A program made the position numbers and the translations under genes. 64,000 nucleotides of DNA from Candidatus Aenigmatarchaeota archaeon (GTDB taxonomy: Archaea; Aenigmatarchaeota; Aenigmatarchaeia; QMZP01; JAFGSV01): the NCBI GenBank assembly GCA_016931255.1, contig JAFGFG010000009.1:164661-228660 (forward strand). The letters are read 5' to 3'. Positions 14,898-60,632 of the stretch are shown piece after piece. Each line of letters starts with the position of its first letter. Within the stretch, counting starts at the first letter, position 1. The notes under the pieces were generated by a model that saw only the letters and a list, made by a program, of their open reading frames with translations, was not told where the DNA came from and did no database searches.

Positions 14898-17069
14898 CTA
14901 ACTTTTTCCGAAATTCCTGCCTACCAATGAGAGATCATCTATGCATATAACGCCATCTTTGTTAAGGTCAGCTAATGGATTCCATTTGTCCTGTCTTTGC
15001 GGTAAACAATCGCATGAACCGCCTACAATGTAATCCGATGCACATGATTTCATTGATTTGGCTACTATTACGAGGTCTTTAACATCCACTATATCGTCAC
15101 CGTTGGCATCGCCTTTAGGCTTGCATTCACAACTTCCATAACAGTAATCGTCAATGTTGCAGTCTCCATCACTTTCACACTCAGCACCGCACTGTATGAT
15201 GTCGCATGTGTGTGTCAGCGTAACAGTTCCAGTTGTGCATACATCATTGGCTTCGTCACAGCTTGATGTGAATCCCGGGAACCAGTCCCATGTGAATGCT
15301 ATGCTGTCAGGGTCATTCGTGCATGTGGCTATTGAGAGAATATTATTGGCTGAACAATCAACTGCAATTCCAGCTTGGCAATCCAGAAGTGCGTCACATG
15401 TCTCACTGCCGTCGCACCAAAGTTCATTGTCACAGTTCCCATTATTTGGTGTATTTACTATCACATCATTTATTTCATCACAACTGTCGTCAGTGCATGT
15501 TACACCATCGTCTACAACAGGAGGAGTTCCTGCCTGACAGTCAAGGAGTGCGTCACAGAATTCATTCCCATTACAGAAAAGAGTGTCATCACAGAGAGCG
15601 TTATTTACCGAGTTCTCACATGAGTCTGTTTCCTCGTCGCACGAATCAACAGTGCAGCCTACGCCGTCCGAGCAGTCTCTGGATTCGCAACTGCATTCCC
15701 CAGACTGGCACACATCATTCACTGTGCAGAAGTTCCCGTCGTCGCAGGGCGTCCCATCATCCTTGTTGCTGCTCGTACCGGTGTCGACCCACTGCGTGTC
15801 CGTCACGGAGTACTCGCATCCTGAACCTCCACATATGTAATCCCTGTATTCCTCTTCCTTCTGCTCTTTTTCAGTGCACTCGCCGGTGGATACCCACTGT
15901 ATCTCTCCTGTGTCGTACCAGACGTCTGATGCATTACAATCCTCTGTGAGATAGAAACATGAACAGTCGCTCTCGCACGAGCCGCCGTAATTGTAGACAT
16001 CGCCTACACACTTGTCGCTGCACGGATTCTGGGAGTCGCATTCCGCACCGCACTGGGAAACGTTGCATGTGCTCGTTATGCTTACGGTTCCGGTAGTGCA
16101 CACGTCGTTCTCCTCATCGCATGCCGATACGAATCCAGTGAAAACATCCAGTGTCCAATCGTAGCCGTCAGGTGTGTAACTGCATATTGAAATCGGTTCT
16201 ATGTCATTGTTGGTACAGTCAAACGGCTGGAAGAAGCATCCGTCAGGACCCATGCATTCACCGTCATGTCCTTCGCACCAAAGACCGCTTTCAGGAAGCA
16301 GACACAATGCATCCCCATCGTCATCAATCACTCCATTGCAATCGCTATCATTTCCATCACATACTTCATCCACGCTTTCATCAGCGCTTGCACCAGGGTT
16401 CGTGGAGCAGTCAGCAGTGCTTGTTCCCGAACACTCGACCAGTCCCAGTCCGCACTTTCCAATGCCGTCGCATGTCTGGTTTATGTTCAGGCCCTGATAA
16501 GTGAAATCCTCATCACTCAATCCATCGCAGTCATCATCGAGGGCGTTGCAGGTTTCCGATGCAGAATTGTCACGCGTACCGCCCGGGTTCGACCAGCATG
16601 ATGCTGTATTTACATTAAAACACTCGACTTTACCAAAGCCACATGTACCGATTCCATAGCATCCCTGTCCGACATATCTAGACTCTTCATAAACAGGATC
16701 ATCATAATAAAATTCTTCGTCTGTACTGCCGTCGCAGTCATTGTCAAATGTATCGCATATTTCAACGCTAGAGTTATCATGACTTCCACCAGGATTTGTC
16801 CAACAATCTACCTCATTTGTAAAGTTCTCACACTCGACTTTACCAAAGCCACATGTACCGATTCCATAGCATCCCTGTCCGACATATCTAGACTCTTCAT
16901 AAACAGGATCATTATATTCGTCTATGTATCCATCTCCATCATTGTCGATACCATCGCAAATCTCAGTAGCGGCTTTGACATTAGTTGGAGCAAAAAGAAG
17001 AACTAAAGTTACGACTAAAAGAAGAGCCAGTGGAATTGGGCTAGATTTTGTCATCTTAATCCCATCCAT
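14898..17069 (-). CDS. Secreted Cys/Asp-rich protein with MopE-like C-x-DNDCDG-x-DE repeats, internally duplicated Cys modules and a C-terminal dockerin type-I module
   Basis: It has a Sec signal peptide (cleavage after VKA) and four repeats of the form EICDGIDNDGDGYIDE / EICDTFDNDCDGSTDEE. The segment YNDPVYEESRYVGQGCYGIGTCGFGKVEC is duplicated. The C-terminus reads DANGDDIVDVKDLVIVAKSM...DLNKDGVICIDDLSLVGRNF, a paired Ca-binding dockerin repeat. Confidence 0.7.
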   Translation of the reverse strand: MDGIKMTKSSPIPLALLLVVTLVLLFAPTNVKAATEICDGIDNDGDGYIDEYNDPVYEESRYVGQGCYGIGTCGFGKVECENFTNEVDCWTNPGGSHDNSSVEICDTFDNDCDGSTDEEFYYDDPVYEESRYVGQGCYGIGTCGFGKVECFNVNTASCWSNPGGTRDNSASETCNALDDDCDGLSDEDFTYQGLNINQTCDGIGKCGLGLVECSGTSTADCSTNPGASADESVDEVCDGNDSDCNGVIDDDGDALCLLPESGLWCEGHDGECMGPDGCFFQPFDCTNNDIEPISICSYTPDGYDWTLDVFTGFVSACDEENDVCTTGTVSITSTCNVSQCGAECDSQNPCSDKCVGDVYNYGGSCESDCSCFYLTEDCNASDVWYDTGEIQWVSTGECTEKEQKEEEYRDYICGGSGCEYSVTDTQWVDTGTSSNKDDGTPCDDGNFCTVNDVCQSGECSCESRDCSDGVGCTVDSCDEETDSCENSVNNALCDDTLFCNGNEFCDALLDCQAGTPPVVDDGVTCTDDSCDEINDVIVNTPNNGNCDNELWCDGSETCDALLDCQAGIAVDCSANNILSIATCTNDPDSIAFTWDWFPGFTSSCDEANDVCTTGTVTLTHTCDIIQCGAECESDGDCNIDDYCYGSCECKPKGDANGDDIVDVKDLVIVAKSMKSCASDYIVGGSCDCLPQRQDKWNPLADLNKDGVICIDDLSLVGRNFGKS
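16621..16922. repeat. Intragenic direct repeat. Two identical 82-bp copies (16621-16702 and 16841-16922) lie 220 bp apart
   Basis: The copies begin cactcgactttaccaaagccacatgtaccgattccatagcatccctgtccgacatatctagactcttcataaacaggatc and match exactly. Each encodes one of the duplicated YNDPVYEESRYVGQGCYGIGTCGFGKVEC segments. Confidence 0.85.
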
Positions 17070-32232: not shown

Positions 32233-33429
32233 TCATGGTTTCAGCCACTCTATCTCGTAGTAGTCGTACTCGGAATCCCTGAGCCTTATCTTGTTGAGGG
32301 CGTAATATGTTATAGCAGTTTCACGGTCTGTTATCGAGAGTATGAGGTTCATTCCCATTACAGCGGATTTTGCAAGGAGTGATGCCAGTTCAACGCCTCC
32401 TATGTGCTCCTCCTCGCTCATTGCAGCAAGAAGGTATCTCGGCCTGTCCTTTGGCGGTGCTTCCCTTATCCAGTCCTTTCCCCTCTTCTTCCTCCTGTAA
32501 GCAGCGAAATCAGCAGGATAGTCCATGAAATCCTTCTTTGTTATCTTCGGGACACCCAGTATGAATGTCTTCTTGACGCCGTGAGCGACCCTGACAGCCC
32601 TAGCCCACTCCGAGACCAGCAGCTTCTCCTCTTTCGGGAATATGTGCAGCACATGCTTTGAGTGCACCCACTTTCCGTCGCCTGTCTCCCTGAGCGGCGA
32701 TGCATCAGGGAAGTATATCCTGAAATGCGTCCCGAACTTGAAACCTGTCTTCACTATGTATCCGCGCAGCCTCCAGTCCTCGTAAGCCTGGTACATGGCT
32801 TTGGCGAACTCCCTTCTCTTTGATATTTCATCCATTATCTTTCCGGATGTCGTGGCCTTTCCGGTCTTTGCATCAACGACCTTGAATCCGAAGCGCTTCG
32901 ACAGCAGCATGACCTCGAAGAAGTTCAGCTTGAGTATGCTTCCCCTCTCCTGCTTGTATACCCCTATCTGGCCGAGCCACCAGTCCTTGTAAAGCTCGAT
33001 ACCCGCCTTGTCATCGAAGACACCCATCGCGGATTCGGAATCCCATATGATTTTTGCTGCTGACTTCCTGATTTTCATTACATTCTCAGGGTATTTCTTT
33101 ACATGGCTCTCCCGGCTGCTTCCGCCTTTCGTGTATTCGTCCACCCTCTTGACTATGAGTCCGCGGTCCCTCCAGTCCCTGTAGGCGTTGTACTTTATCA
33201 TGAGCCTTGTGTCTTTTGAGGCGTAGGCGATAACGATATCCCCGAATCCCATTACAGCCTTTCCGTGCTTTATCTTCCCGTTCATAAGGTCGATTATGTA
33301 AAGCGCTTCCTCCGGATTGAGCCAGAGCTTGTCAGAGACCTGCTCGCCAAAAGAATTATTCCTGAGCCTGTCCGCATCCTCCTTCTCTGCCCATAGTCCC
33401 TTCTTGGGGTCGTAATTGATTTCTATCAT
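32233..33429 (-). CDS. endA: tRNA-splicing endonuclease, long two-repeat form
   Basis: The C-terminal catalytic unit LRGYIVKTGFKFGTHFRIY...HSKHV matches the EndA catalytic motif, and a degenerate N-terminal repeat is present (YRDWRDRGLIVKRVDEY). Confidence 0.8.
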   Translation of the reverse strand: MIEINYDPKKGLWAEKEDADRLRNNSFGEQVSDKLWLNPEEALYIIDLMNGKIKHGKAVMGFGDIVIAYASKDTRLMIKYNAYRDWRDRGLIVKRVDEYTKGGSSRESHVKKYPENVMKIRKSAAKIIWDSESAMGVFDDKAGIELYKDWWLGQIGVYKQERGSILKLNFFEVMLLSKRFGFKVVDAKTGKATTSGKIMDEISKRREFAKAMYQAYEDWRLRGYIVKTGFKFGTHFRIYFPDASPLRETGDGKWVHSKHVLHIFPKEEKLLVSEWARAVRVAHGVKKTFILGVPKITKKDFMDYPADFAAYRRKKRGKDWIREAPPKDRPRYLLAAMSEEEHIGGVELASLLAKSAVMGMNLILSITDRETAITYYALNKIRLRDSEYDYYEIEWLKP

Positions 33430-34286: not shown

Positions 34287-34697
34287 ATGGACCTTGTGAT
34301 TTACACGGACGGCGGCTCAAGGGGAAACCCAGGGCCGGCTGCATTCGCGCTCCTGATATACGACATTAAAGGCAAGCTTCTGGAAAGCCACAGCGAGTAC
34401 ATAGGCGAGAACACGAACAATGTGGCTGAATACAGGGGCATGCTGAAGGCGCTCAAGATGGCGAAAAAGCACGGTGACGGGAATGTCACGTGCACGATGG
34501 ACAGCGAGCTTGCTGTCATGCAGCTTTCCGGAAAGTACAAGGTGAAGAAGCCGCACCTGAAGGAACTTTATGAAATGGTCAAGGCAGAGGAGAAGAACTT
34601 CAGGTCTGTGAAGTATGAACATGTCAAACGGGAAAACCAGTACATAACATGCGCAGATGCCATGCTCAACAGGACACTGGACAGGGTGAAAAAATGA
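34287..34697 (+). CDS. rnhA: Ribonuclease HI
   Basis: It has YTDGGSRGNPGPAA, NNVAEY and DSELAV with the catalytic D/E/D residues. Confidence 0.85.
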   Translation: MDLVIYTDGGSRGNPGPAAFALLIYDIKGKLLESHSEYIGENTNNVAEYRGMLKALKMAKKHGDGNVTCTMDSELAVMQLSGKYKVKKPHLKELYEMVKAEEKNFRSVKYEHVKRENQYITCADAMLNRTLDRVKK

Positions 34698-35524
34698 ACA
34701 TGAAGGATGTCCTGAAAGGCAAGCTTTCTGAAGAAGAACTTTCAAAGGTCCCGCGGGCATTCGATATCGTTGGTGACATAGCCATAATCGAGATACCATT
34801 CGAGCTCAAGCACAGGAAGATGGATATCGCGGAGGCCCTTCTGAAGGTAAACAAACACGTGAAGACAGTCTGCGACAAGTACGGCGAGCGTTCCGGAGAC
34901 TACAGGCTTAATGAAATCGAGATACTCATCGGCGAAAGCACAGTAACGGAGCACAAGGAAAACAACTGCAGGTTCAGAGTCGACCTGAGCAAGGCGTATT
35001 TCTCTGCAAGGGAGTCCACTGAAAGGCTGAGGATAGGCCGGATGATAAAGCCCGGAGAGAATGTCCTGGTGATGTTCAGCGGCGTGTGCCCCTCGCCGAT
35101 AACCTATGCGAGGATGCAGAAGAAGATAGGCAGCGCGTACGGGGTTGAGCTGAATCCGGACGCCCACACATATGCTGAAGAGAATGTCAGGCTGAACAAG
35201 GTCGAAGGGAAAGTCATACCTATATGCGGGAATGTAAGGGAAGCATGCCCCAAACTCGGAAAGAAGTTCGACAGGATAACCATGCCGCTTCCAAAAGGCG
35301 CATACGAGTTTCTGGACACTGTATTTGAAGTGGCTGCCAGGGGTTGCGTCGTCCATTTCTACTACTACGACCGTCAGGATGCTCTTTACGGGAAAGCGCT
35401 GGAATATGTTAAAAACGCGGCCAAGAAAGCCAAGAGAAAAATAAAAATATTGGACAAGCGAAAAGTGCTTCCTTACGGCCCGAGAATCTGGAAGGTATGC
35501 GTGGAGTTCAGGGTTCTTGACTGA
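34694..35524 (+). CDS. trm5: tRNA (m1G37) methyltransferase, Trm5/Taw2 family. The start is re-set to the ATG that overlaps the rnhA stop (ATGA)
   Basis: The archaeal Trm5/TYW2 N-terminal motif AFDIVGDIAIIEIP is present, followed by a class-I SAM-MTase fold. Confidence 0.7.
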   Translation: MNMKDVLKGKLSEEELSKVPRAFDIVGDIAIIEIPFELKHRKMDIAEALLKVNKHVKTVCDKYGERSGDYRLNEIEILIGESTVTEHKENNCRFRVDLSKAYFSARESTERLRIGRMIKPGENVLVMFSGVCPSPITYARMQKKIGSAYGVELNPDAHTYAEENVRLNKVEGKVIPICGNVREACPKLGKKFDRITMPLPKGAYEFLDTVFEVAARGCVVHFYYYDRQDALYGKALEYVKNAAKKAKRKIKILDKRKVLPYGPRIWKVCVEFRVLD

Positions 35525-46446: not shown

Positions 46447-48920
46447 TCTTTATCACTCCATTGTACTTTTGCTGGATCCACGCCATCCTCGCCGGCCTTG
46501 AACTGGACTATTTCTCCGTTGGAGTTCTTGACCGAGAGCGAGGTTGTCACGCGGAGGTCCTGCAATGCATTGACAAGCCTTCTCTGCATGTAACCGCTTT
46601 TCCTTGTTCTCAGTGATTTGTCCATAAGGCCTTCACGGCCGTTCATTATGTTCCAGAATAATTCTGTGGGGCTGAGTTCCTGCTTGAAACCATTCTTAAC
46701 GAAACCATGCCCGGCTGCTGAAAGGTCACCCTTCCTGAAATGAGGAAGCGTCCTGTTGAAGAAACCCCTCTTTATCCTCTGGCCGAGTATAGCCTCCTGG
46801 CCGACGCATGCAGCCATCTGCGTTGCGTTGATAAGAGAACCCTTTGATCCTGAATTTGTCATCGTAAGTATGTCACTGTCCTTGATGTTCTCCTTCACTA
46901 TCTCAGAAACGCTGTTTAGCCCTTCTGCAAGAACATTGAGTATCTGGCTTTCGAGCGACTCACTCTTTGTCATCCCAGGCAGTATCCTAATCTCTCCGGC
47001 GTTGTATTTCTCGATGAGGTCATTCGAATGCTTCTCCGCAAGGTCTACCCTTTTCTTGACCTTGACAAGCGTCTCTTCCGGAAGGTCGAGGTCTGATATG
47101 CCTATTGAGAATCCCCTTCTTGCTATGAATGCAACAGCAAGCCTGCCGGCATTGTCTATGAAGTTCTTTATTTCCTCGGTCTCGACAATCCCGTGGAGTT
47201 TGCTTATTATCTTACCCTTAAGTGCGCCGACAGCTGATGAGTCTATTGCACCCTGAAGCAGATGCCCATCCTTTATCTTTACGTAAGAATCAAACTTGCA
47301 TGCATCGCCGATGCATTTATCACACTGCTTGCAGCAGTTCGCCTTGAAATCCATGTTGAGACCCCTCGGAAGTAACAGGCTGAATATTTCCTTTCCTGTG
47401 AATTCCTTCCGTCCGTCAGGGAGGTCTATGTCTATACCAGCCCTTCCGAAAAGATTTGCCGTTTCCTTCCTGCTGACTTTTACATCGCCGTGCGTCAGAA
47501 GATACATGCCTGATATCTGGTCAAGGTCTAGTCCTATTAACGGACCGCCGAACCTTGGTGAAATTATGTTGTTCTTCACATCTATGAGCTCTGATGCTTC
47601 TACCCTTGATTCCTCTGTCTGTAGTGCGTGGAGGTTCATCTCGTCGCCGTCGAAGTCTGCGTTGTATGGCGGGCACACCTGAGGGGATATCCTGAAGGTC
47701 TTCCCTGGCATGACCCTTACTCTATGGGCCATTATGGATGGCCTGTGAAGGGATGGCTGCCTGTTGAAAAGGACTATGTCACTGTCAGTGAGCTGCCTGT
47801 CGATAATCCAGTCGCTTGTTATGTTCTCTATAAGCTCTTCCTTGTTATCATCTGTCACCTTTATTCTCCTTCCGTCAGGCCTCTTTGCGTAGTTGGCCTT
47901 GCCAGATCTTATGAGTTCTTTTATGTGGTTTATGCTGAGCTTCGTTACAGGAACCTCAATTGTCAGTTCTTTGGCTATAACATCCGGAACACCGACCTCG
48001 TTGATTGAAATCCTCGGGTCAGGCGATATGACTGTTCGTGCAGAGAAGTTTACCCTCTTGCCGAGAAGGTTGCCTCGTATCCTTCCTTCCTTCCCCTTCA
48101 TCCTCTGTATCATTCCCTTGAGCGGCCTTCCGCTCCTGTGCCTTGCCTGAGGTATGCCGGTAAGCTCGTTGTCGAAGTATGTTGTAACATGATACTGCAG
48201 AAGCTCCCACAGGTCCTTGATAATGAAATCAGGCGCACCTATGTCTATGTTCTCCCTGAGTGACTGGTTTATCCTGACTATGTCCACGAGCTTGTGCGTG
48301 AGGTCGTCCTCTGACTTCTCACCGCTTTCCAGTGTGATGCTAGGTCTTGTTGTCACAGGTGAAACCGGGAAGAGTGTAAGTATCATGCTTTCAGGCCTTC
48401 CGCCCTTGAACCCAACCCTCTTCAGCTCGTCTTCGGGTATGGCTTCAAATCGTTCCCTTATTTCCTGGGGTGAAAGCTCTTCCTTCTCCTCGTAGAATGT
48501 ATTGGGCTTGAGGAACTTTATCTTTCCCTGCTCTGCTCCGCAATGCGGGCACTTGCTTGGTGGGTTCCTTCCGAGCTCCTTGCTTGCCTTCTTGTCTTCA
48601 GGCTTTGAAAGTATCTTTCCGCACTTTGTGCAGGATATCTTGAGCATCTTGTATATGGCTTTTGTGTAAAGTATGTTTACAACAGGCTTCGCAAGCTCGA
48701 GATATCCGAAATGGCCCGGGCAGTCTCCTATTCCTGCACCGCATGTCCTGCAGTGAAGGCCTGGGTCCACGACACCGAGCCTTGGGTCCATGACGCCGCC
48801 TTCAACCGGATATCCGTCCACATCATATAGGTCTGAAGTGACTATTCTCACAGCTGCCAGTGACTTCACGTCTTCAGGTGTCAGTATGCTGAAACTTATA
48901 CCCTTTATCCTTGATACCAT
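46443..48920 (-). CDS. rpoA1: DNA-directed RNA polymerase subunit A'
   Basis: Zn-binding CxxC N-terminus, [10 protein letters not shown] (catalytic Mg) and the clamp and dock regions. Confidence 0.95.
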
Positions 48921-51900
48921 TATGCGTCACCAACCTTGAGTTTTGGAATTATGCACATTGAAGTCACCTCATCAAGCAGGAGCTTGAATGCGTATGATGT
49001 CTCCACCCATCTGACCTTGCTTTCCTTGCAAAGCTGGCAGTGTGTGCGGTTGTTCGACTTGTCATGTATCGCCATCATTCCGCAGTTCTCGCATACAGGT
49101 ATCATAGCTTTGTCCGAGTCGAACCTTTCCTTAAGCGTAAGTGCAGCACCGTGCGCCACAAGGCACTGCTGCTCCATTTCTCCGAGTCTCAGTCCGCCCT
49201 TCTTTGCACGGCCTTCTGTAGGCTGCCTTGTAAGAAGTGCAACAGGACCCCTTGACCTTGCATGGAGCTTATTTGCTACCATGTGATCGAGCTTGAGATA
49301 GAATGAAATTCCTGTGAATATCATCACTTCGTAGGCCTTTCCTGTTCTGCCGTCATAAAGTATTTCCTTTCCGTCTTCCCTGAATCCGGACCCAAGAAGA
49401 AGCCTTCTTATCTCTTCCTCTCTCATGTGTTCGAATGCGGTGCCCTTTATGTCTGCATTGGCGGTCATGGCCTTTGTCTTGCCTGCGAGTATCTCAAGCA
49501 GCTGGCCCATGGTCATCCTGCTTGGCACGCCGTGGGGGTTGAATATTATGTCAGGCACAACGCCCTTCGATGAGAATGGCATGTCTTCCTGAGGAACCAT
49601 GAGGCTTACGACACCCTTCTGTCCGTGCCTTGAAGCGAACTTGTCACCTATCTCAGGTATGCGCCTGTCACGCACCCTTATCTTGACTACGTGATTGCCG
49701 TTTGTGCTCTCTGATATCAGAATCTTGTCAGCAACACCCTGCTCTCCGTGCCTGACTGTTATTGACGTCTCCCTCTGGTTCTCTATTCCGGCTGCGAACT
49801 CCTCACCTGAAAGGAACCTCAGAGGGGATGTTTTTCCCACGAGAACTGAATCTGAATTTACCTGGGTTTCAGGATTTATTATGCCGTCAGCTGAAAGATG
49901 GGCATACGCTTCTTCGCCCCTGTGACCCTTTATGCCGGGTTCCGGTATGCTGATTTCATCCTCCTGTCCGCCCCAGTATCTCTTTTTCTCGGTTTCATAA
50001 GTTCTGTAGTACATTGACCTGAGGAGACCCCTGTCAACAGAGGACTTGTTCATTATTATGGCGTCGTTAAGGTTGTACCCGTCCATTGACATGACTGCTA
50101 ATACCACATTCTGTCCGCCCGGATAATCCCTTATGATTTGGGATGTGGCTGTGTCTATCAGTGGTGCCTGCGGGTAAATGAGTGTATTGAACTTTGTGTC
50201 AGTTCTTACCAGGAAATTGGTTGACGGGATGCCTATTGACTGTCCGACCATCTTTGCTCCGTAGTTAATCCTGTCACCTCTGTTATATCCCGGGTATGGT
50301 ATAAGCGTGGCCGGAAGGCCGAGCATTGCAAGGGGGGTTACCTCCGCGTGCGTGTGCTCTGCTGTGAGATTGACAGGCTTCATTGCGATGTATGAGTTTT
50401 CTTCTTCCTCAGCATCAATGTATTCCATCAGCCCGTGCTTCAGGAGGTATGATGTGTCAATTTCTCCCTTCGCCATTTTTGCGAGTATGTCATCAGTGAG
50501 CTTTATCTTCCCGTTCTCTGCAATAAGAAGAGGCCTTCGTGCCCTTCCGTTGTCTGTGTTTATCCTTATCTCGCCGAATTCAGCATAAATGACTACATTG
50601 AGCTGGTCGTTTATCAGGCCTGTCCTTCTTTTCTTCCTGAGGTTTTCCGTGACCTTTGTGGGTGCGAAAGTCCTTCCCATGAAGTCGCCGTTGAAATAAA
50701 TGTCATAAGCATGCTTTACTTCCTTGCCTGTGGCTTTTTCCATTTCAGCCCTAACGGACTTCACAAGCACATCATTCTCAGTCTTGCTGAGCCCCGGTGT
50801 TATCTCTGACAGGAGTGCAAGGTGCTTCCTGAGGCCGATTGAACTGCCTTCCGGTGTTTCTGCAGGGCAAAGCCTTCCCCATTCTGTGGGATGTATTTCT
50901 CGGGCGCTGAAGTGCTCCTGTGTGGTTGTAAGCGGCGACACAACGCTCCTGAGGTGTGAAATCGTCTTGAGGTAGCAGCTTCTGTCAAGTCTCTGGCTGA
51001 CGCCTGACCTGCCTCCTATCCAGTTTCCTGTTGCAAGTGATGAAAGAATCTGTTTTGTGACAGCGTTCGCCTCGACAATTCCCTGGACTGACGGCTGCTG
51101 TCCCCTCTTCGTAAGCTTCTGATAGTTGTAGGTCATCTTGGCGATGAGTCCCCATCGTCCAAGAAGCACAGACCTGAACAGCTGGGAAAGAAGCTCTCCT
51201 GACATGAGCAGCCTCTTGTTTCCGTAGTGGTCTATGTCATCCTCAGGTATCGCATCAAGCGATACTGATATGACCTTCTTCATTATCCTTGAAAGATAAA
51301 GTGCCTTTGACATCCTGTTGGATTTTTCCTGTCCGATGTGCGGAAGCAGGTACCTGTCAAGTATCTGGTTCACCCTTTCTATCCTGTAGTCTTCAGAAAC
51401 CTTGAGCTTCCTGCCCATCTCGTCGATGGCCTCGTTCTCGTCTATAGGCTCTGATTCGTAAAGTGAAACATAAAGTTCGTTCAGTATCTTCGGGTCGCTG
51501 CTTATGTTGTCGCAGATATCCTTGTCAGTTGACATCCCGAGCGCCTTGAGAAGGGTGACTATGGAAAGCCTTCTGATGTTTGCGAATGATATGGTGAGAG
51601 TGCCTTCAGGCCTTCTCTCTATCAGGTGCCTCTGTTTGAATCCGCTCCTCTCAGAGTTGACCCTTACTGTGACAGCGTCATCGTTCTTCTCGAAGACAGG
51701 CTTGTTGCCTGCTATCTCCTCTATAAGGACAAGTGCCCTCTCTGTTCCGTTGACAATGAAATATCCTGTTGCGTCATCAGGGTCTTCCCCTGCTTCTATG
51801 AGCTCCTTTCGTGTGATTCCGTATGTTGAGCAGAGCTTTGAACCTATCATGACCGGAAGGTCTCCGATGTGGACCCTTTCTGTCTTCTCCTGAACGCCGT

Positions 51901-52255
51901 TGACTATAGGTGTTATATTTACCCATATAGGGGCGGCATATGTGAAATTCCTTATCCTGCATTCATTCGGGAAAAGCGGGCTCTTGGTCTCCTTTGACCT
52001 TTTGTAGCCGTCGGATTCTATGAGATAAGGGCTTCCAACTTCGACCTTTCCGAATGAGAGCTTAACGTCACCCATGTCAGGAATGAGGTCAATGGTGCCT
52101 ATCTCGTTTATTATGTGCTGGAGACCGTTGTCAACAAATGCATTGAAAGAGTCTATCTGGAACTGGGTCCAGCCGTTCTCCTTTTCAAGGGTATTGAGAA
52201 CAGTAAGCAAGTCCATACCAGTGCCTACCCTTTTAACACCCTTTCCCTTAGTCAT
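48920..52255 (-). CDS. rpoB: DNA-directed RNA polymerase subunit B (unsplit, 1111 aa)
   Basis: A single ORF covers both the B'' and B' regions. It has GEMEQQCL and the C-terminal Zn ribbon CENCGMM...CQLCK. Confidence 0.95.
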   Translation of the reverse strand: MTKGKGVKRVGTGMDLLTVLNTLEKENGWTQFQIDSFNAFVDNGLQHIINEIGTIDLIPDMGDVKLSFGKVEVGSPYLIESDGYKRSKETKSPLFPNECRIRNFTYAAPIWVNITPIVNGVQEKTERVHIGDLPVMIGSKLCSTYGITRKELIEAGEDPDDATGYFIVNGTERALVLIEEIAGNKPVFEKNDDAVTVRVNSERSGFKQRHLIERRPEGTLTISFANIRRLSIVTLLKALGMSTDKDICDNISSDPKILNELYVSLYESEPIDENEAIDEMGRKLKVSEDYRIERVNQILDRYLLPHIGQEKSNRMSKALYLSRIMKKVISVSLDAIPEDDIDHYGNKRLLMSGELLSQLFRSVLLGRWGLIAKMTYNYQKLTKRGQQPSVQGIVEANAVTKQILSSLATGNWIGGRSGVSQRLDRSCYLKTISHLRSVVSPLTTTQEHFSAREIHPTEWGRLCPAETPEGSSIGLRKHLALLSEITPGLSKTENDVLVKSVRAEMEKATGKEVKHAYDIYFNGDFMGRTFAPTKVTENLRKKRRTGLINDQLNVVIYAEFGEIRINTDNGRARRPLLIAENGKIKLTDDILAKMAKGEIDTSYLLKHGLMEYIDAEEEENSYIAMKPVNLTAEHTHAEVTPLAMLGLPATLIPYPGYNRGDRINYGAKMVGQSIGIPSTNFLVRTDTKFNTLIYPQAPLIDTATSQIIRDYPGGQNVVLAVMSMDGYNLNDAIIMNKSSVDRGLLRSMYYRTYETEKKRYWGGQEDEISIPEPGIKGHRGEEAYAHLSADGIINPETQVNSDSVLVGKTSPLRFLSGEEFAAGIENQRETSITVRHGEQGVADKILISESTNGNHVVKIRVRDRRIPEIGDKFASRHGQKGVVSLMVPQEDMPFSSKGVVPDIIFNPHGVPSRMTMGQLLEILAGKTKAMTANADIKGTAFEHMREEEIRRLLLGSGFREDGKEILYDGRTGKAYEVMIFTGISFYLKLDHMVANKLHARSRGPVALLTRQPTEGRAKKGGLRLGEMEQQCLVAHGAALTLKERFDSDKAMIPVCENCGMMAIHDKSNNRTHCQLCKESKVRWVETSYAFKLLLDEVTSMCIIPKLKVGDA

Positions 52256-52649: not shown

Positions 52650-52887
52650 TGGGCCCGGCAGGATTTGAACCCGCGACACCCAGGTTTGTTCTGTCATCGG
52701 ACCCTTTTGCGGTTCAGTGGTTCGCAAAGCGTCCACGGAAAACCTCCGCTTGGGGGTCCTTTACACGCTTTTAACGCGTTTGCTGAAGCTTTTTGAAAGC
52801 TCCAATGACATTAAAAGCTTCACCTGAGGTGCTGCACAACGTGCAACACGCTCGTCTAGTGCTCTAGCCAGACTGAGCTACGGGCCC
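52650..52887 (-). tRNA. tRNA-like gene with a ~160-nt structured insert (probably one or more introns). Isotype and exon junctions are unresolved
   Basis: The minus strand begins GGGCCCG-TA-GCTC-AGTCTGGCTA-GAGC (acceptor and D-arm). It ends A-CCTGG-GTGTC-GCGGG-TTCAAAT-CCTGC-CGGGCCC-A (anticodon-stem 3' half, variable loop, T-arm, acceptor, discriminator). In between are 9-10-bp hairpins (GAAGCTTTT/AAAAGCTTC) and a TAGACGAGC motif shared with the tRNA-Tyr intron. Confidence 0.55.
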
Positions 52888-53789: not shown

Positions 53790-53862
53790 CGCCCCGACCG
53801 GGATTTGAACCCGGGTCATGACCGTGACAGGGTCATATGCTAGGCCACTACACCATCGAGGC
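53790..53862 (-). tRNA. tRNA-Asp (GUC)
   Basis: The minus strand reads GCCTCGA-TG-GTGT-AGTGGCCTA-GCAT-A-TGACC-CTGTCAC-GGTCA-TGAC-CCGGG-TTCAAAT-CCCGG-TCGGGGC plus discriminator G. It forms a cloverleaf with anticodon loop CUGUCAC. Confidence 0.85.
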
Positions 53863-54093
53863 AGGTGAAATAAATTATGCAGCAACATCTTTTAAAGGTT
53901 TGCTGTTTCCGAGAAATATAAGAATTGGCAGCGATCTGGATTTCCCAGCCGAAACCAGTAATGTCCAGACCGTCAGAGAGCTTGACTTCCGTGTTCGAAA
54001 AGGGAACGGGTAAACCTCTCTCCTTTGGCCGCCGAATATTATATTACATGTGTCATTTATAAAGGTATTCCTTTGAAGGTTTCTATTGGTAAT

Positions 54094-55363: not shown

Positions 55364-55852
55364 TGAAAGCCTCGCGATTGAAAAACATATTTTCCTCACA
55401 TCTATGAAATTATGAAGGACATGTATCTGCGGCTACGGGGTCCAAGAACGAATGACCCCGCTAAACCGAATCTGTATCGAATATGTATCTATTCCTGCCC
55501 GGAGCCGGTGTAACCTGAGTCGTCACGGCTCCTGCGGCCGGAACGTAGTCTGCCTTCCCGTCAGCATACGAATGGAATATGCTTTCCAGATCCCATATGT
55601 CGCACATCTTTTCCATTTTTTCCATAAAGTCTTCGGTCATATTCAACCTCCTTAATTACATGTACCCGCAAGACCAGGACGAAAAGATTAACTTCTTCTG
55701 CCATGAAGGAGAACCAGTCCGCACCCGGCAACGGCTAATGAAATCACAGAGACTTCATTAGCACGATTAGCAATGCTGGGTGCATGGAATATTATTGGCC
55801 GCGCACCTTTTTAAGCATAGTGCTTTCACACGTGTTCCGGAAAAAATAAGAA

Positions 55853-56048
55853 ATCCCGAGAGGGAGATTTGTCCGCTCCTTTTCCGTTGACGCTTTTTCA
55901 TGTCTCTAACCGAAAAGGGTCATTGAACTCCCGGCCTATCGGTCTCTTTCGAGCGACTGCGTCCAACAAACACACTCATAAGACCGTGCATATATCACGG
56001 TGTGCTCGTCTACAGCCGATCGCTCTAGCCAGTCTGAGCTACCTCGGG
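55853..56048 (-). tRNA. tRNA-Tyr (GUA) with two putative introns (66 nt after position 37, and about 50 nt in the T-loop)
   Basis: The minus strand begins CCCGAGG-TA-GCTC-AGACTGGCTA-GAGC-G-ATCGG-CUGUAG. A 66-nt intron follows, then A-CCGAT-AGGCC-GGGAG-TTCA, a second insert, then AAAT-CTCCC-(T)-TCTCGGG-A. The anticodon loop CUGUAGA equals the canonical archaeal tRNA-Tyr loop. The anticodon stem ATCGG/CCGAT, the T stem GGGAG/CTCCC and the acceptor CCCGAGG/TCTCGGG pair perfectly or with one G-U. There is one extra T at the T-stem/acceptor junction. Confidence 0.55.
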
Positions 56049-56092
56049 ATTTGTATAGAATATAAGAAGAGATAAACCTTAAAAAAGTAAGC

Positions 56093-57542: not shown

Positions 57543-57617
57543 GGGATCGTAGTGTAGCTTGGCCTAGCATCGGAGCTTCGGGAGTTCCAGACCTGAGTTC
57601 AAATCTCAGCGATCCCA
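57543..57617 (+). tRNA. tRNA-Pro (CGG)
   Basis: GGGATCG-TA-GTGT-AGCTTGGCCTA-GCAT-C-GGAGC-TTCGGGA-GTTCC-AGAC-CTGAG-TTCAAAT-CTCAG-CGATCCC-A. Confidence 0.85.
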
Positions 57618-57638
57618 TCAGTAATCAACTGGAAATGG

Positions 57639-57713
57639 GGGGCCGTAGTGTAGCTTGGCCTATCACTCGGGGCTGGGGGTCCCGTAACCGGAGTTCGAAT
57701 CTCCGCGGCCCCA
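57639..57713 (+). tRNA. tRNA-Pro (GGG)
   Basis: GGGGCCG-TA-GTGT-AGCTTGGCCTA-TCAC-T-CGGGG-CTGGGGG-TCCCG-TAAC-CGGAG-TTCGAAT-CTCCG-CGGCCCC-A. Confidence 0.8.
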
Positions 57714-59948: not shown

Positions 59949-60632
59949 TCACCATTTTCTTGGACAGGTGGCTGCCCTCTGTATAATCCAGGCAACCCTA
60001 TTGCTTGAAATCCTTGTAGCGGTTTTGTCCTTTTCTCTTATGGTCACGAATAACGGCAGGTTCTGCCTGTTGGCATTGGTTCTGTAAGGGTATTCATTGA
60101 GCCAGGCCTTGATACTTTCCATACATGCAACGGCTGGCACCTCACGCTTTCCAGTTTTTCCGTTCAGGTTGACCTTGAAATAGTTGCCACAAAAAGTTAA
60201 ATCGCCTATGTTCAGATTGCATAACTCACCAAGCCTTGCCCCGTTTTCGGATAGCAGGCTTAGCATTGCCCTGTCCCTTGTATTCGCTGTACAGCCTATT
60301 ATCTGCTTGATTTCCTCGCTGGTCAGGAGGTCTTTTGCCTGAAGCGAACGTTCCTGGGCTCTGCATATTCTGTTTATCTTTAATCCAGCCACGCAGTCTG
60401 GATATACCCCACGCTTCTTTATGCCATACAAGAACCTGACGAATTTCCTTAATGTAAATTTGTACAGATTCATCGTTGAACTATTTTGAATCTGCTGCCT
60501 TACCACTGGGTTCTTCTTGCCGTGCTTCTGCCAGCAGTTAGAATATTTTCTGTTCAGCACGTTCATTGCATCAATCTTTTTTATGTACTTTGCGTAGATA
60601 TCTTCTCCTTTATCTTCAGGCATATCAAACAC
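59949..60632 (-). pseudogene. Tyrosine recombinase (XerC/D-like integrase) fragment lacking the C-terminal HxxR...Y catalytic boxes
   Basis: It has a core-binding domain and box I with the catalytic Arg (TRDRAMLSLLSENGARLGELCNLNIGDL). The ORF ends (...RVAWIIQRAATCPRKW*) just before the position of the HxxR box, and no downstream continuation was found. Confidence 0.6.

Follow-up and report, generated by a model that had tools for sequence, protein, structure and literature searches.

The minus strand of the window (the whole 64,000-nucleotide stretch analyzed here) carries at positions 56048-55854 what is very probably, at roughly 0.88, a functional gene for tRNA-Tyr(GUA) from an archaeon of the Candidatus Aenigmatarchaeota (DPANN), the group to which RpoB assigns the window. 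The gene would be transcribed as an approximately 200-nt precursor with two protein-spliced introns. Removal of 66 nt at the canonical position 37/38 and of 54 nt at position 58/59 in the T loop leaves a 75-nt sequence, which ARAGORN at its default settings calls as tRNA-Tyr(gta) with all four arms, bearing out the first-pass annotation of the locus as an archaeal tRNA-Tyr(GUA) interrupted twice. The two-intron layout is a new example of an already known kind, since a T-loop intron is found in 32 of the 52 tRNA-Tyr loci recovered from related genomes and metagenomes, and the window encodes a homolog of the epsilon2 endonuclease, a type that cuts at 59/60. T-loop introns had been described in the first-pass annotation as rare and lineage-restricted in Archaea; within the Aenigmatarchaeota lineage they are common.

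Exon 1 (56010-56048, minus strand; 39 nt) spans tRNA positions 1-37, namely the 5' strand of the acceptor stem, the D arm, the 5' strand of the anticodon stem and CUGUAG, which ends in G37; it is identical or nearly so in the orthologs. Exon 2 (55923-55943, minus strand; 21 nt) covers positions 38-58: A38, the 3' strand of the anticodon stem, the variable loop, the 5' strand of the T stem, and UUCAA, ending in A58. Exon 3 (55854-55868, minus strand; 15 nt) supplies positions 59-73, with the AU of the T loop, the 3' strand of the T stem, U66, the 3' strand of the acceptor stem and the discriminator A73. An "extra T" between the T stem and the acceptor 3' strand, previously regarded as unexplained, is U66 itself, which forms a G7-U66 wobble and is C66 in close relatives. 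The identity elements of archaeal TyrRS are C1-G72, A73 and the anticodon GUA, with C1-G72 and A73 characteristic of the archaeal/eukaryal TyrRS; both the C1-G72 pair (56048 and 55855) and the discriminator A73 (55854) are present. A TATA-like box, TTTTTTAAGG (56077-56086, minus strand), lies 29-38 nt upstream of the mature 5' end and could serve as the promoter; L002, L003, L010, and L015 have TTTTTAAGG equally far upstream. Directly after A73 there is a T-rich tract, TTTCTTATTTTTT (55841-55853, minus strand), resembling an archaeal terminator and presumably acting as one, and comparable T-runs follow the tRNA-Tyr gene in the orthologs.

Intron 1 (55944-56009, minus strand) occupies the canonical position 37/38 and is 66 nt long, as first annotated. 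In its bulge-helix-bulge (BHB) motif, the outer helix h is the 5-bp anticodon stem, and the 5-bp inner helix h' is the CGAGC/GCUCG pairing already noticed on the flanks of the insert. Both bulges read AG|A. The central helix, CUGU/AAAG, forms three of four pairs with one G-A mismatch, a slightly relaxed form, and all introns of the K-turn type described below likewise have an imperfect central helix (2-3 of 4 pairs). The 3' strand of h' (GCUCG, 55950-55954) overlaps an element, GUCGCUC (55951-55957, minus strand), that is complementary to exon nucleotides G22-U28 and is paired with exon 1 both by RNAalifold and in the MFE fold. Changes in this second helix all keep the pair (GC in 15 and GU in 8; UG in 20 and UA in 6) and are one-sided, the only kind visible with a search pattern in which the exon was held constant.

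Intron 2 (55869-55922, minus strand) is placed at T-loop position 58/59 by its BHB. The first-pass annotation was right that the T loop is interrupted; its estimate of about 50 nt becomes 54 nt, and the insertion site that it proposed, TTCA|...|AAT, gives way to TTCAA|...|AT. The central helix, G53UUC56/GGAC, has four of four pairs, with bulges AA|U and AA|A; the outer helix h has 4 bp in a shifted (slipped) register of the T stem, and the inner helix h' consists of 1 bp, a 2x2 loop and 7 bp. For cleavage at 58/59, the T stem would slip by two nucleotides. Excision restores the T loop TTCAAAT. A 59/60 register was also considered for this intron and was rejected, as it leaves one of four central pairs and a loop that would read TTCAATT.

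The T-loop introns of the 32 tRNA-Tyr loci range from 15 to 202 nt and lie either at 58/59 (the window and 12 other loci) or at 59/60 (19 loci). A BHB can be drawn for every one of them, with flanking 3-nt bulges and a central helix of 4 bp in 29 and 3 bp in three, and removal of the insert restores a T loop that reads TTCAAAT or nearly so (TTCGAAT in two, TCCAAAT in one). By chance, about 2% of random 4-mers would be able to pair with any given one. Comparison with the tRNA-Tyr loci of relatives, which had been suggested as a check, also supports the gene: the same in-silico splicing produces a tRNA-Tyr at every one of the 39 orthologous loci whose 5' part is contiguous. Together, these 39 spliced tRNAs and 32 BHBs place the two-intron structure beyond chance.

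Two-intron orthologs with matching exons are located upstream of rpoB in L002, L003, L010, L015, and L032, with T-loop introns of 31, 33, 78, 138, and about 33 nt, respectively; L099, L062, L067, and L114 have no T-loop intron. Close relatives vary in the presence, site (58/59 or 59/60) and length of this intron. Some related tRNA-Tyr loci contain a third intron, in the D loop, and relatives have T-loop introns in tRNA-Lys, tRNA-Pro, tRNA-Gly, and tRNA-Asp genes as well. A motif of the window's T-loop intron recurs in a tRNA-Lys (L071) and a tRNA-Pro (L015). This variation, together with related introns across different tRNAs, provides natural material on the movement of BHB introns. The two introns of the tRNA-Tyr gene are conserved to very different degrees: across nine close relatives, whose RpoB proteins are only about 83% identical, mean identity is 96.5% for the exons, 93.7% for intron 1 and 46% for the T-loop intron, with 79% in the 45 nt upstream and 60% downstream. 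By these identities, selection on intron 1 is about as strong as that on the exons.

An enzyme suited to these introns is encoded 22 kb from the tRNA-Tyr gene. The gene (32236-33429, minus strand) encodes a 398-aa protein that matches Pfam tRNA_int_endo (E=1.9e-27) and, in phmmer, the epsilon2-type (three-unit) tRNA-splicing endonuclease of ARMAN-2 (PDB 4FZ2/9W2K; E=5.4e-92, query residues 3-398 against chain residues 6-387). Equivalents of the catalytic residues Y236, H251 and K282 are conserved, as is the Y160-K161 ("YK") of the ASL loop. In vitro, the ARMAN-2 enzyme cuts a T-loop intron located at 59/60 (PMC3239211), and BHB motifs are cut after the central (second) nucleotide of the bulge (PMC12397907). 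The epsilon2-type enzyme of the window is accordingly expected to be the endonuclease for both introns. Each pair of intron-exon junctions would fold as a BHB, with a 3-nt bulge on either side of a 4-bp helix; once the endonuclease had cut between the second and third nucleotides of each bulge, an RNA ligase would join the exons. From the anatomy of the locus, the conservation of its exons and BHBs and the presence of the enzyme gene, all of which are observed, we infer that both introns are excised. The window brings together tRNAs with heavily interrupted genes and an epsilon2-type endonuclease from outside the Micrarchaeota, which supports the joint evolution of endonuclease specificity loops and intron spread.

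The unspliced locus is poorly visible to standard tools. Neither ARAGORN nor the Rfam tRNA model calls it in the raw window, and the isolated unspliced region scores 17.2 bits with the Rfam model, below the gathering score of 29. With relaxed thresholds, ARAGORN -i recovers only the first intron from the raw sequence and forces a wrong 3' half. In addition, the MFE fold of the precursor adopts neither the BHB of intron 1 nor that of intron 2; this, the G-A mismatch in the first BHB, and the shifted T stem and 2x2 loop of the second all count against a functional two-intron gene. Rejection by standard tRNA finders and BHBs missing from the MFE fold are what a decaying tRNA pseudogene, disrupted by two insertions and left unspliced, might display, but this explanation is very improbable: the exons have stayed nearly identical while the T-loop insert changed in sequence and length, every T-loop insert has kept its BHB geometry, every spliced ortholog is a canonical tRNA-Tyr, the TATA-like box, the T-run and the synteny with rpoB are conserved, and a matching endonuclease is encoded in the window. 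Standard annotation overlooks this essential tRNA-Tyr and a second tRNA, a tRNA-Lys with predicted introns at 30/31 and 37/38, 3 kb away; statements on the gene content of DPANN archaea and on their "missing tRNAs" are therefore affected.

Apart from its splicing motif, intron 1 contains a K-turn/K-loop hairpin (55971-56004, minus strand) composed of a C-stem (CACAC/GUGUG), a 3-nt bulge (CGU), tandem G-A/A-G pairs and a 17-nt loop. In the window copy, a box C-like GUGAUAU and a box D-like AUGA are separated by a 12-nt spacer. This layout could be parsed in 30 distinct sequences, with invariant GA dinucleotides and bulge length and, in most, the same 12-nt spacer; RUGA and NNGA are present in every copy, and a consensus box C in some (GUGAUGA in L105, AUGAUGA in L080). 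The loop includes an antisense element, CGGUCUU (55980-55986, minus strand), complementary to GAG|ACCG, that is, the last three nucleotides of the intron, A38 and C39-G41. As a consensus, the element reads CGGUYU, and its duplex with the 3' splice junction and C39-G41 has 6-9 bp, one covarying pair included. In all 30 parsed sequences, the antisense element ends 3 nt before the GA, and C39 pairs with the nucleotide five positions upstream of the D-like box. Intron 1 as a conserved structured RNA was absent from the first-pass annotation.

Covariation supports the K-turn stem and one loop-to-junction pair. The C-stem is paired in 97.9% of cases, three of its five pairs have changed on both sides, and RNAalifold, unaided, recovers four of the five (23-63, 24-62, 25-61, and 26-60). 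The loop-to-junction pair, at alignment columns 53 and 95, is C-G in 15 sequences, U-A in 14, and unpaired in none, with at least two, and only about two, independent switches between these states. The observed covariation score was not attained in any of 500 shuffles, and in slid controls 19-56% of cells were paired, compared to 91.5%. It is probable, on this comparative evidence, that the K-turn element of intron 1 pairs with the anticodon stem of its own tRNA. The exon-like conservation of intron 1 might alternatively reflect a stable, probably circular, small RNA that acts in trans and uses the tRNA-Tyr gene chiefly as a means of expression. Circularized, stable forms are common among archaeal tRNA introns and C/D sRNAs (PMC7994747), and the intron RNP of pre-tRNA-Trp reportedly acts in trans (PMC7994747, PMC4090602). 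We nonetheless consider such an RNA unlikely to be the main role of intron 1: the loop nucleotide covaries with the final nucleotide of its own intron, which fits the own precursor as the target rather than another RNA, and no second antisense element at a constant distance from a D-like box was found in intron 1.

Several other elements were sought in the intron. It has one K-turn and one 12-nt spacer, with no second conserved GA pair or C'/D' motif, and conserved boxes at a fixed distance are lacking from its 3' half (UUUGUUGGACGCAGUCGCUC). A candidate C'/D' motif of the canonical form was rejected, as its UUGGAC changes to UUAAAC in L010. Downstream of the conserved CGCAGUCGCUC, a second D-type box was rejected as a ruler-type guide because its distance to the nearest GA varies by 1-3 nt between lineages. 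Also rejected were an H/ACA reading (lower stem, pocket, ANA), which leaves a grossly asymmetric pocket of 3 versus 29 nt, and a local hairpin, CCGUG/CACGG, which is lost in L062-type sequences although these retain the K-turn stem. Searched against Rfam, the region 55780-56120 matches no C/D family at E up to 10; an sR5-like match elsewhere in the window (16486-16540) lies inside a 723-aa ORF, has a 19-nt spacer and was taken as chance. A Pfam scan of the 59 ORFs of the window detected no fibrillarin, Nop5 or L7Ae, and tblastn of 1.6 Mb of related loci found no fibrillarin or L7Ae, a negative of little weight given approximate query sequences and fragmentary DNA.

The reading of intron 1 that we regard as most likely, and hold tentatively, is a minimal single-site box C/D-like guide. 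L7Ae, Nop5 and fibrillarin would 2'-O-methylate C39, after which the RNA would refold to the BHB and be spliced, as in archaeal pre-tRNA-Trp. The C-like/D-like layout in 30 sequences, the covarying stem, the invariant GA distance and the tRNA-Trp precedent argue for such a guide; the single K-turn with no C'/D' motif, a degenerate box C in the window copy (GUGAUAU), the duplex of only 6-9 bp, the small number of covariation events, the lack of an Rfam C/D match and the failure to find fibrillarin, Nop5 or L7Ae genes in the DNA searched argue against it. A single-site C/D RNP is active in vitro but not site-specific (PMC1635284), which also counts against a guide and is consistent with a purely structural or regulatory element. 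It is quite possible, if short of even odds, that the K-turn and the junction complementarity act without methylation, with L7Ae (or no protein) presenting the relaxed BHB, or with the pairing masking the 3' splice site and so timing splicing. The lack of a second, C'/D' platform beside the one K-turn fits such an element, as do the imperfect BHB central helix in all K-turn-type introns, the mutual exclusivity of the two conformers, of which the MFE fold prefers the non-BHB one, and the searches of the window ORFs and, with approximate queries, of the related loci, which yielded no Nop5 or fibrillarin gene. It does not readily account for the conserved box C-like RU before the first GA, for the box D ruler formed by the 12-nt spacer and an antisense end exactly 3 nt before the second GA, or for position 39, opposite the fifth nucleotide, being the Um39 site of pre-tRNA-Trp (PMC4090602). 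Nor does it account for the tRNA-Lys(UUU) introns of the lineage, in which, by our reading, an antisense to the own anticodon loop lies beside a K-turn-like motif and the fifth nucleotide is opposite position 32 or 34.

With these tRNA-Lys introns in mind, the methylation guide could be a broader feature. Perhaps, though we would not put it at even odds, the 37/38 introns of Aenigmatarchaeota carry single-K-turn C/D-like guides, directed at C39 in tRNA-Tyr and at 32 or 34 in tRNA-Lys(UUU), with a precursor that toggles between a modification fold and the BHB. If the K-turn/antisense module does guide methylation, it would be a second, simpler case in which an intron modifies the tRNA that hosts it; the intron-encoded guide, described so far as unique to tRNA-Trp, would extend to other tRNAs, and a one-site C/D module would work in vivo in a reduced DPANN genome.

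Among known systems, the gene as a whole most resembles the tRNA genes of ARMAN-2 (Candidatus Micrarchaeum acidiphilum; Fujishima et al. 2011, PMC3239211). This organism is also a DPANN archaeon, its tRNAs are interrupted by BHB introns both at canonical sites and in the T loop (59/60, and 53/54 plus 59/60 in one tRNA), and its endonuclease is likewise a single-gene product of about 395 aa with an ASL loop, to which the window protein aligns end to end. The window differs in phylum, being from the Aenigmatarchaeota, while the cited literature reports the epsilon2 type only from the Micrarchaeota. It also differs in the tRNA affected (tRNA-Tyr), in the 58/59 T-loop site with its slipped outer helix, in the length of the introns (54-66 nt versus 13-25 nt in ARMAN-2), and in having a conserved structured RNA as its canonical intron.

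In the Thermoproteales, as summarized in PMC4090602 (Sugahara 2008, Fujishima 2010), tRNA genes contain up to three BHB introns, at 37/38 and at noncanonical sites including 59/60. Related intron sequences common to different tRNA genes are a shared feature, represented here by the tRNA-Lys of L071 and the tRNA-Pro of L015. However, the Thermoproteales belong to TACK and have an (alpha-beta)2 endonuclease with a CSL loop, unlike the epsilon2 enzyme with an ASL loop of this DPANN window.

The closest counterpart of intron 1 is the pre-tRNA-Trp intron, a box C/D guide for Cm34 and Um39 according to the accounts of Clouet d'Orval 2001 and Singh 2004 in PMC4090602 and PMC7994747; the former terms it a unique example. 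Both introns are about 65 nt long and located at 37/38, and both have K-turn-forming RUGA/NNGA boxes and an antisense to the own anticodon stem, in which the nucleotide five positions upstream of the D-type box faces position 39; in both, the BHB cannot coexist with the guide pairing. The pre-tRNA-Trp guide is bipartite, with C/D and C'/D' motifs, whereas the putative guide of the tRNA-Tyr intron has one K-turn and one antisense; its antisense is located in the K-turn-closed loop, its duplex is 6-9 bp, and its boxes are degenerate in many copies. The hairpin itself resembles L7Ae-bound K-turns and K-loops (PMC5539422) in its canonical stem, 3-nt bulge and tandem sheared G-A/A-G pairs, and resembles the K-loops in that a loop replaces the noncanonical stem; binding of L7Ae to the tRNA-Tyr intron is putative. 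In comparison with those K-loops, the loop of the tRNA-Tyr introns is unusually long (17-57 nt) and contains the conserved antisense.

The tRNA-Tyr gene (minus strand, 56048-55854) consists of three exons, CCCGAGGUAGCUCAGACUGGCUAGAGCGAUCGGCUGUAG (positions 1-37), ACCGAUAGGCCGGGAGUUCAA (positions 38-58) and AUCUCCCUCUCGGGA (positions 59-73), separated by a 66-nt intron 1 (56009-55944) and a 54-nt intron 2 (55922-55869). ARAGORN and Rfam, at its gathering thresholds, do not call the locus in the raw window, where they call three other tRNAs and one 5S rRNA. The Rfam tRNA model scores the isolated region at 17.2 bits (gathering score 29) with the 3' half wrongly forced, and ARAGORN with relaxed thresholds likewise gets the 3' half wrong. 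Removing the second insert alone yields an ARAGORN call of tRNA-Tyr with a 66-nt anticodon-loop intron; removing both gives a 75-nt tRNA-Tyr(GTA) under default settings, which bears out the two-intron tRNA-Tyr proposed in the first-pass annotation, correct in its interpretation as in its observation. The extra T that it left unexplained is present but is simply U66, which pairs with G7; this nucleotide is C66 in several relatives, including L099, L105 and L117. The product has C1-G72 and A73, identity elements for archaeal TyrRS. A TATA-like TTTTTTAAGG at -38 to -29 and a T-run after A73 are conserved in relatives.

Bulge-helix-bulge (BHB) motifs were assigned with a geometry of 4 bp between two 3-nt bulges, cut after the central bulge nucleotide (PMC5829648; PMC12397907). 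In intron 1, the outer helix is the 5-bp anticodon stem, the central helix comprises C32-G, U33-A, a G34xA mismatch and U35-A, the bulges are AG|A on both sides, and the inner helix is the CGAGC/GCUCG pairing already recognized by eye. For intron 2, registers 56/57, 57/58 and 58/59 all restore an identical mature loop, and at 58/59 alone do all four central-helix pairs form (G53UUC56 with GGAC), flanked by 3-nt bulges (AA|U and AA|A); the T-loop insert, initially estimated at about 50 nt, is 54 nt, with its predicted site at 58/59. The 4-bp outer helix (A52-U60, G51-C61, G50-U62, G49-C63) implies a two-nucleotide slip of the T stem, and the inner helix is made up of 1 bp, a 2x2 loop and 7 bp. 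Because neither BHB forms in the MFE fold of the precursor, both are predicted to be relaxed motifs requiring a tolerant enzyme.

A Pfam scan of the 59 ORFs in the window identified a 398-aa tRNA intron endonuclease (32236-33429, minus), which aligns end to end with the ARMAN-2 epsilon2 enzyme (PDB 4FZ2/9W2K; E=5.4e-92). Counterparts of the catalytic Y236, H251 and K282 are kept, as are those of Y160-K161 in the ASL loop, which confer broad substrate specificity (PMC12397907). ARMAN-2 tRNAs with T-loop introns exist, and the ARMAN-2 enzyme cleaves a 59/60 T-loop intron in vitro (PMC3239211). Kaneta et al. knew the epsilon2 type from Micrarchaeota alone and noted that incomplete DPANN tRNA sets hint at undetected disrupted tRNA genes (PMC5829648); the tRNA-Tyr locus is one such gene. 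The window places a three-unit, epsilon2-type endonuclease in an Aenigmatarchaeota genome, a type reported in the cited literature only from Micrarchaeota (ARMAN-1/-2, Mancarchaeum). Adjoining its gene are an RNase H-like gene (34287-34697) and a Trm5/TYW2 methyltransferase gene (34649-35524).

Related loci were retrieved with RpoB (48920-52255, minus) as query. The closest matches are Candidatus Aenigmatarchaeota MAGs, one at 99% identity (L001) and five at about 83% (L002, L003, L010, L015, L032). Upstream of rpoB these relatives carry tRNA-Tyr orthologues with exons and an intron 1 that match those of the window, and with T-loop introns of 31, 33, 78, 138 and about 33 nt. Scanning metagenomes with an exon-1/exon-2 pattern added 42 loci, for a total of 52, and all 39 whose 5' part is contiguous gave a tRNA-Tyr call once spliced in silico. 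In 32 of the 52 the T loop is interrupted by 15-202 nt; in every one the top-scoring register gives back the loop TTCAAAT or a near variant (TTCGAAT in two, TCCAAAT in one), with a central helix of 4 bp in 29 loci and 3 bp in three. Thirteen loci, the window's among them, have the insert at 58/59, and 19 have it at 59/60. Thirteen tRNA-Tyr loci have an additional D-loop intron (among them L080, L083, L084, L085, L092, L093, L097, L098, L100, L111, L120 and L121), making three introns per gene in L080, L084, L085, L092, L098 and L120. The T-loop intron is missing from L099, and its site also varies among close relatives, a pattern indicative of recent gain, loss or sliding.

Intron 1 is a structured RNA that has been conserved. 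Compared pairwise, nine close relatives share on average 96.5% identity in the exons, 93.7% in intron 1, 46% in the T-loop intron, and 79% and 60% in the 45 nt upstream and downstream, respectively. Thirty distinct intron 1 sequences have one layout in common: roughly 5 nt, one 5-nt strand of the stem, a 3-nt bulge whose last nucleotides are RU, GA, 8-48 nt, YGGUYU, 3 nt, GA and the complementary stem strand. This layout is a K-turn, with a canonical stem (CACAC/GUGUG), a bulge (CGU), and then G-A and A-G pairs. In alignment A1 (29 sequences), pairing in the stem reaches 97.9%, and both partners vary in three of the five pairs (AU13/GU9/GC7; CG21/UA5/UG3; AU24/GU4/GC1). The loop CGGUCU(U) complements the last intron nucleotides and A38-G41 (GAG|ACCG); its third nucleotide pairs with the final intron nucleotide in all 29, as C-G in 15 and as U-A in the other 14. 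None of 500 column shuffles reached the covariation score of the full structure, and 91.5% of cells are paired versus 19-56% in slid controls. On a rough NJ tree the C-G/U-A switch occurred at least twice, so the covariation evidence, though genuine, draws on a small number of events. RNAalifold pairs exon G22-U28 with intron GUCGCUC, and G37 and the first intron nucleotide, A(i1), with two further intron nucleotides. Since these exon-intron helices replace the BHB in the MFE fold, the precursor is predicted to have two mutually exclusive folds.

Of the two K-turn strands, one is like box C (RUGAUxx; a perfect match in L105 and L080) and the other like box D (NNGA); they are 12 nt apart in most copies. 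In every sequence C39 lies opposite the nucleotide five positions upstream of the D-like box. The module resembles half of the box C/D guide in pre-tRNA-Trp, the sole described intron unit modifying its host tRNA; that guide specifies Cm34 and Um39, resides in introns with a median length of 65 nt, and has to act ahead of BHB formation (PMC4090602; PMC7994747). Unlike a box C/D sRNA, intron 1 has no C'/D' motif, its boxes are degenerate and its duplex is just 6-9 bp, and the main rival to a guide is a purely structural or timing role. The isolated locus region gave no Rfam match for intron 1; genes for Nop5, fibrillarin and L7Ae were not found by Pfam among the 59 window ORFs, nor by tblastn with approximate queries in 1.6 Mb of related loci. 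A single-site C/D RNP is active in vitro, yet not site-specific (PMC1635284). Given these counterpoints, we take the K-turn and loop-junction pairing as established by the sequence comparison, and assign a probability of about 40% to intron 1 being a methylation guide.

A second hidden disrupted gene, tRNA-Lys(UUU), lies at 52650-52887 (minus): exon 1 (52887-52856), a 37-nt intron A at 30/31 (52855-52819), a 7-nt micro-exon GCUUUUA (52818-52812), a 126-nt intron B at 37/38 (52811-52686) and exon 3 (52685-52650). Intron A has a 4/4 central helix (CACU/GGUG) and bulges AG|A and AA|G. Default ARAGORN and Rfam do not call the locus in the window, and ARAGORN -i miscalls it as tRNA-Phe(aaa); it was located by a purpose-made acceptor/T-arm scan, and once spliced it gives a tRNA-Lys(ttt) call. 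Ten relatives share the micro-exon layout (L001, L002, L011, L015, L099, L042, L064, L067, L071, L078). The 37/38 intron holds GUUAAAAGC, antisense to its own anticodon loop (positions 31-39), in the window (52686-52811) and in L006, L037, L049, L050, L052, L058, L062, L078 and L082. A loop reading ACUUUUAUC is met by antisense GAUAAAAGU, and the change is therefore compensatory. After the antisense come NNGA (degenerate, NNAA or NNUA, in several copies, window included), a hairpin and NRU-GA, a K-turn-like motif of the internal C'/D' type. Counted by hand, the tRNA position opposite the fifth nucleotide is 32 in most loci and 34 in L006, L009, L050 and L052.

The T-loop intron of the window tRNA-Tyr contains a motif, AAAAGCGUCAACGGAAAA (55875-55895), that recurs in a tRNA-Lys T-loop intron (L071, 1653-1670), in a T-loop intron of a tRNA read by eye as tRNA-Pro(CGG) (L015, 55-70), and at the start of L059 (1-140) as a tandem pair of roughly 58-nt units; its reverse complement, UUUUCCGUGGACGCUUU, lies within intron B of the window tRNA-Lys (about 52729-52745). 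This recurrence may reflect a mobile intron family or intron-intron complementarity. At about 1317-1620 of L078, adjacent tRNA-Gly(UCC) and tRNA-Asp(GUC) genes have the same 59/60 T-loop intron sequence (AAUCGAAACCACCAGCGGGUUUCGA...), related to the tRNA-Tyr T-loop introns of L082, L084 and L092; this sharing suggests that the T-loop intron spreads from one tRNA gene to another. A 5S rRNA gene with tRNA-Asp(GUC) directly behind it (53790-54036, minus) sits in the interval between the window's tRNA-Tyr and tRNA-Lys genes and upstream of the rpoH-rpoB-rpoA operon. Two tandem tRNA-Pro genes (CGG, GGG; 57543-57713) have a phage-integrase-family gene (59949-60632, minus) some 2 kb away, and at 16-20 kb G+C is 0.43 versus about 0.49, with large ORFs that have no Pfam match; integrated elements are possible.

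Added interest comes from the conserved K-turn/antisense module inside a canonical intron, and from evidence that modules of this kind, like mobile T-loop introns, occur commonly in the phylum. The two-intron tRNA-Tyr itself belongs with the known disrupted archaeal tRNA genes and broad-specificity endonucleases, its nearest precedent being ARMAN-2, with its epsilon2 enzyme and its T-loop introns at 59/60.
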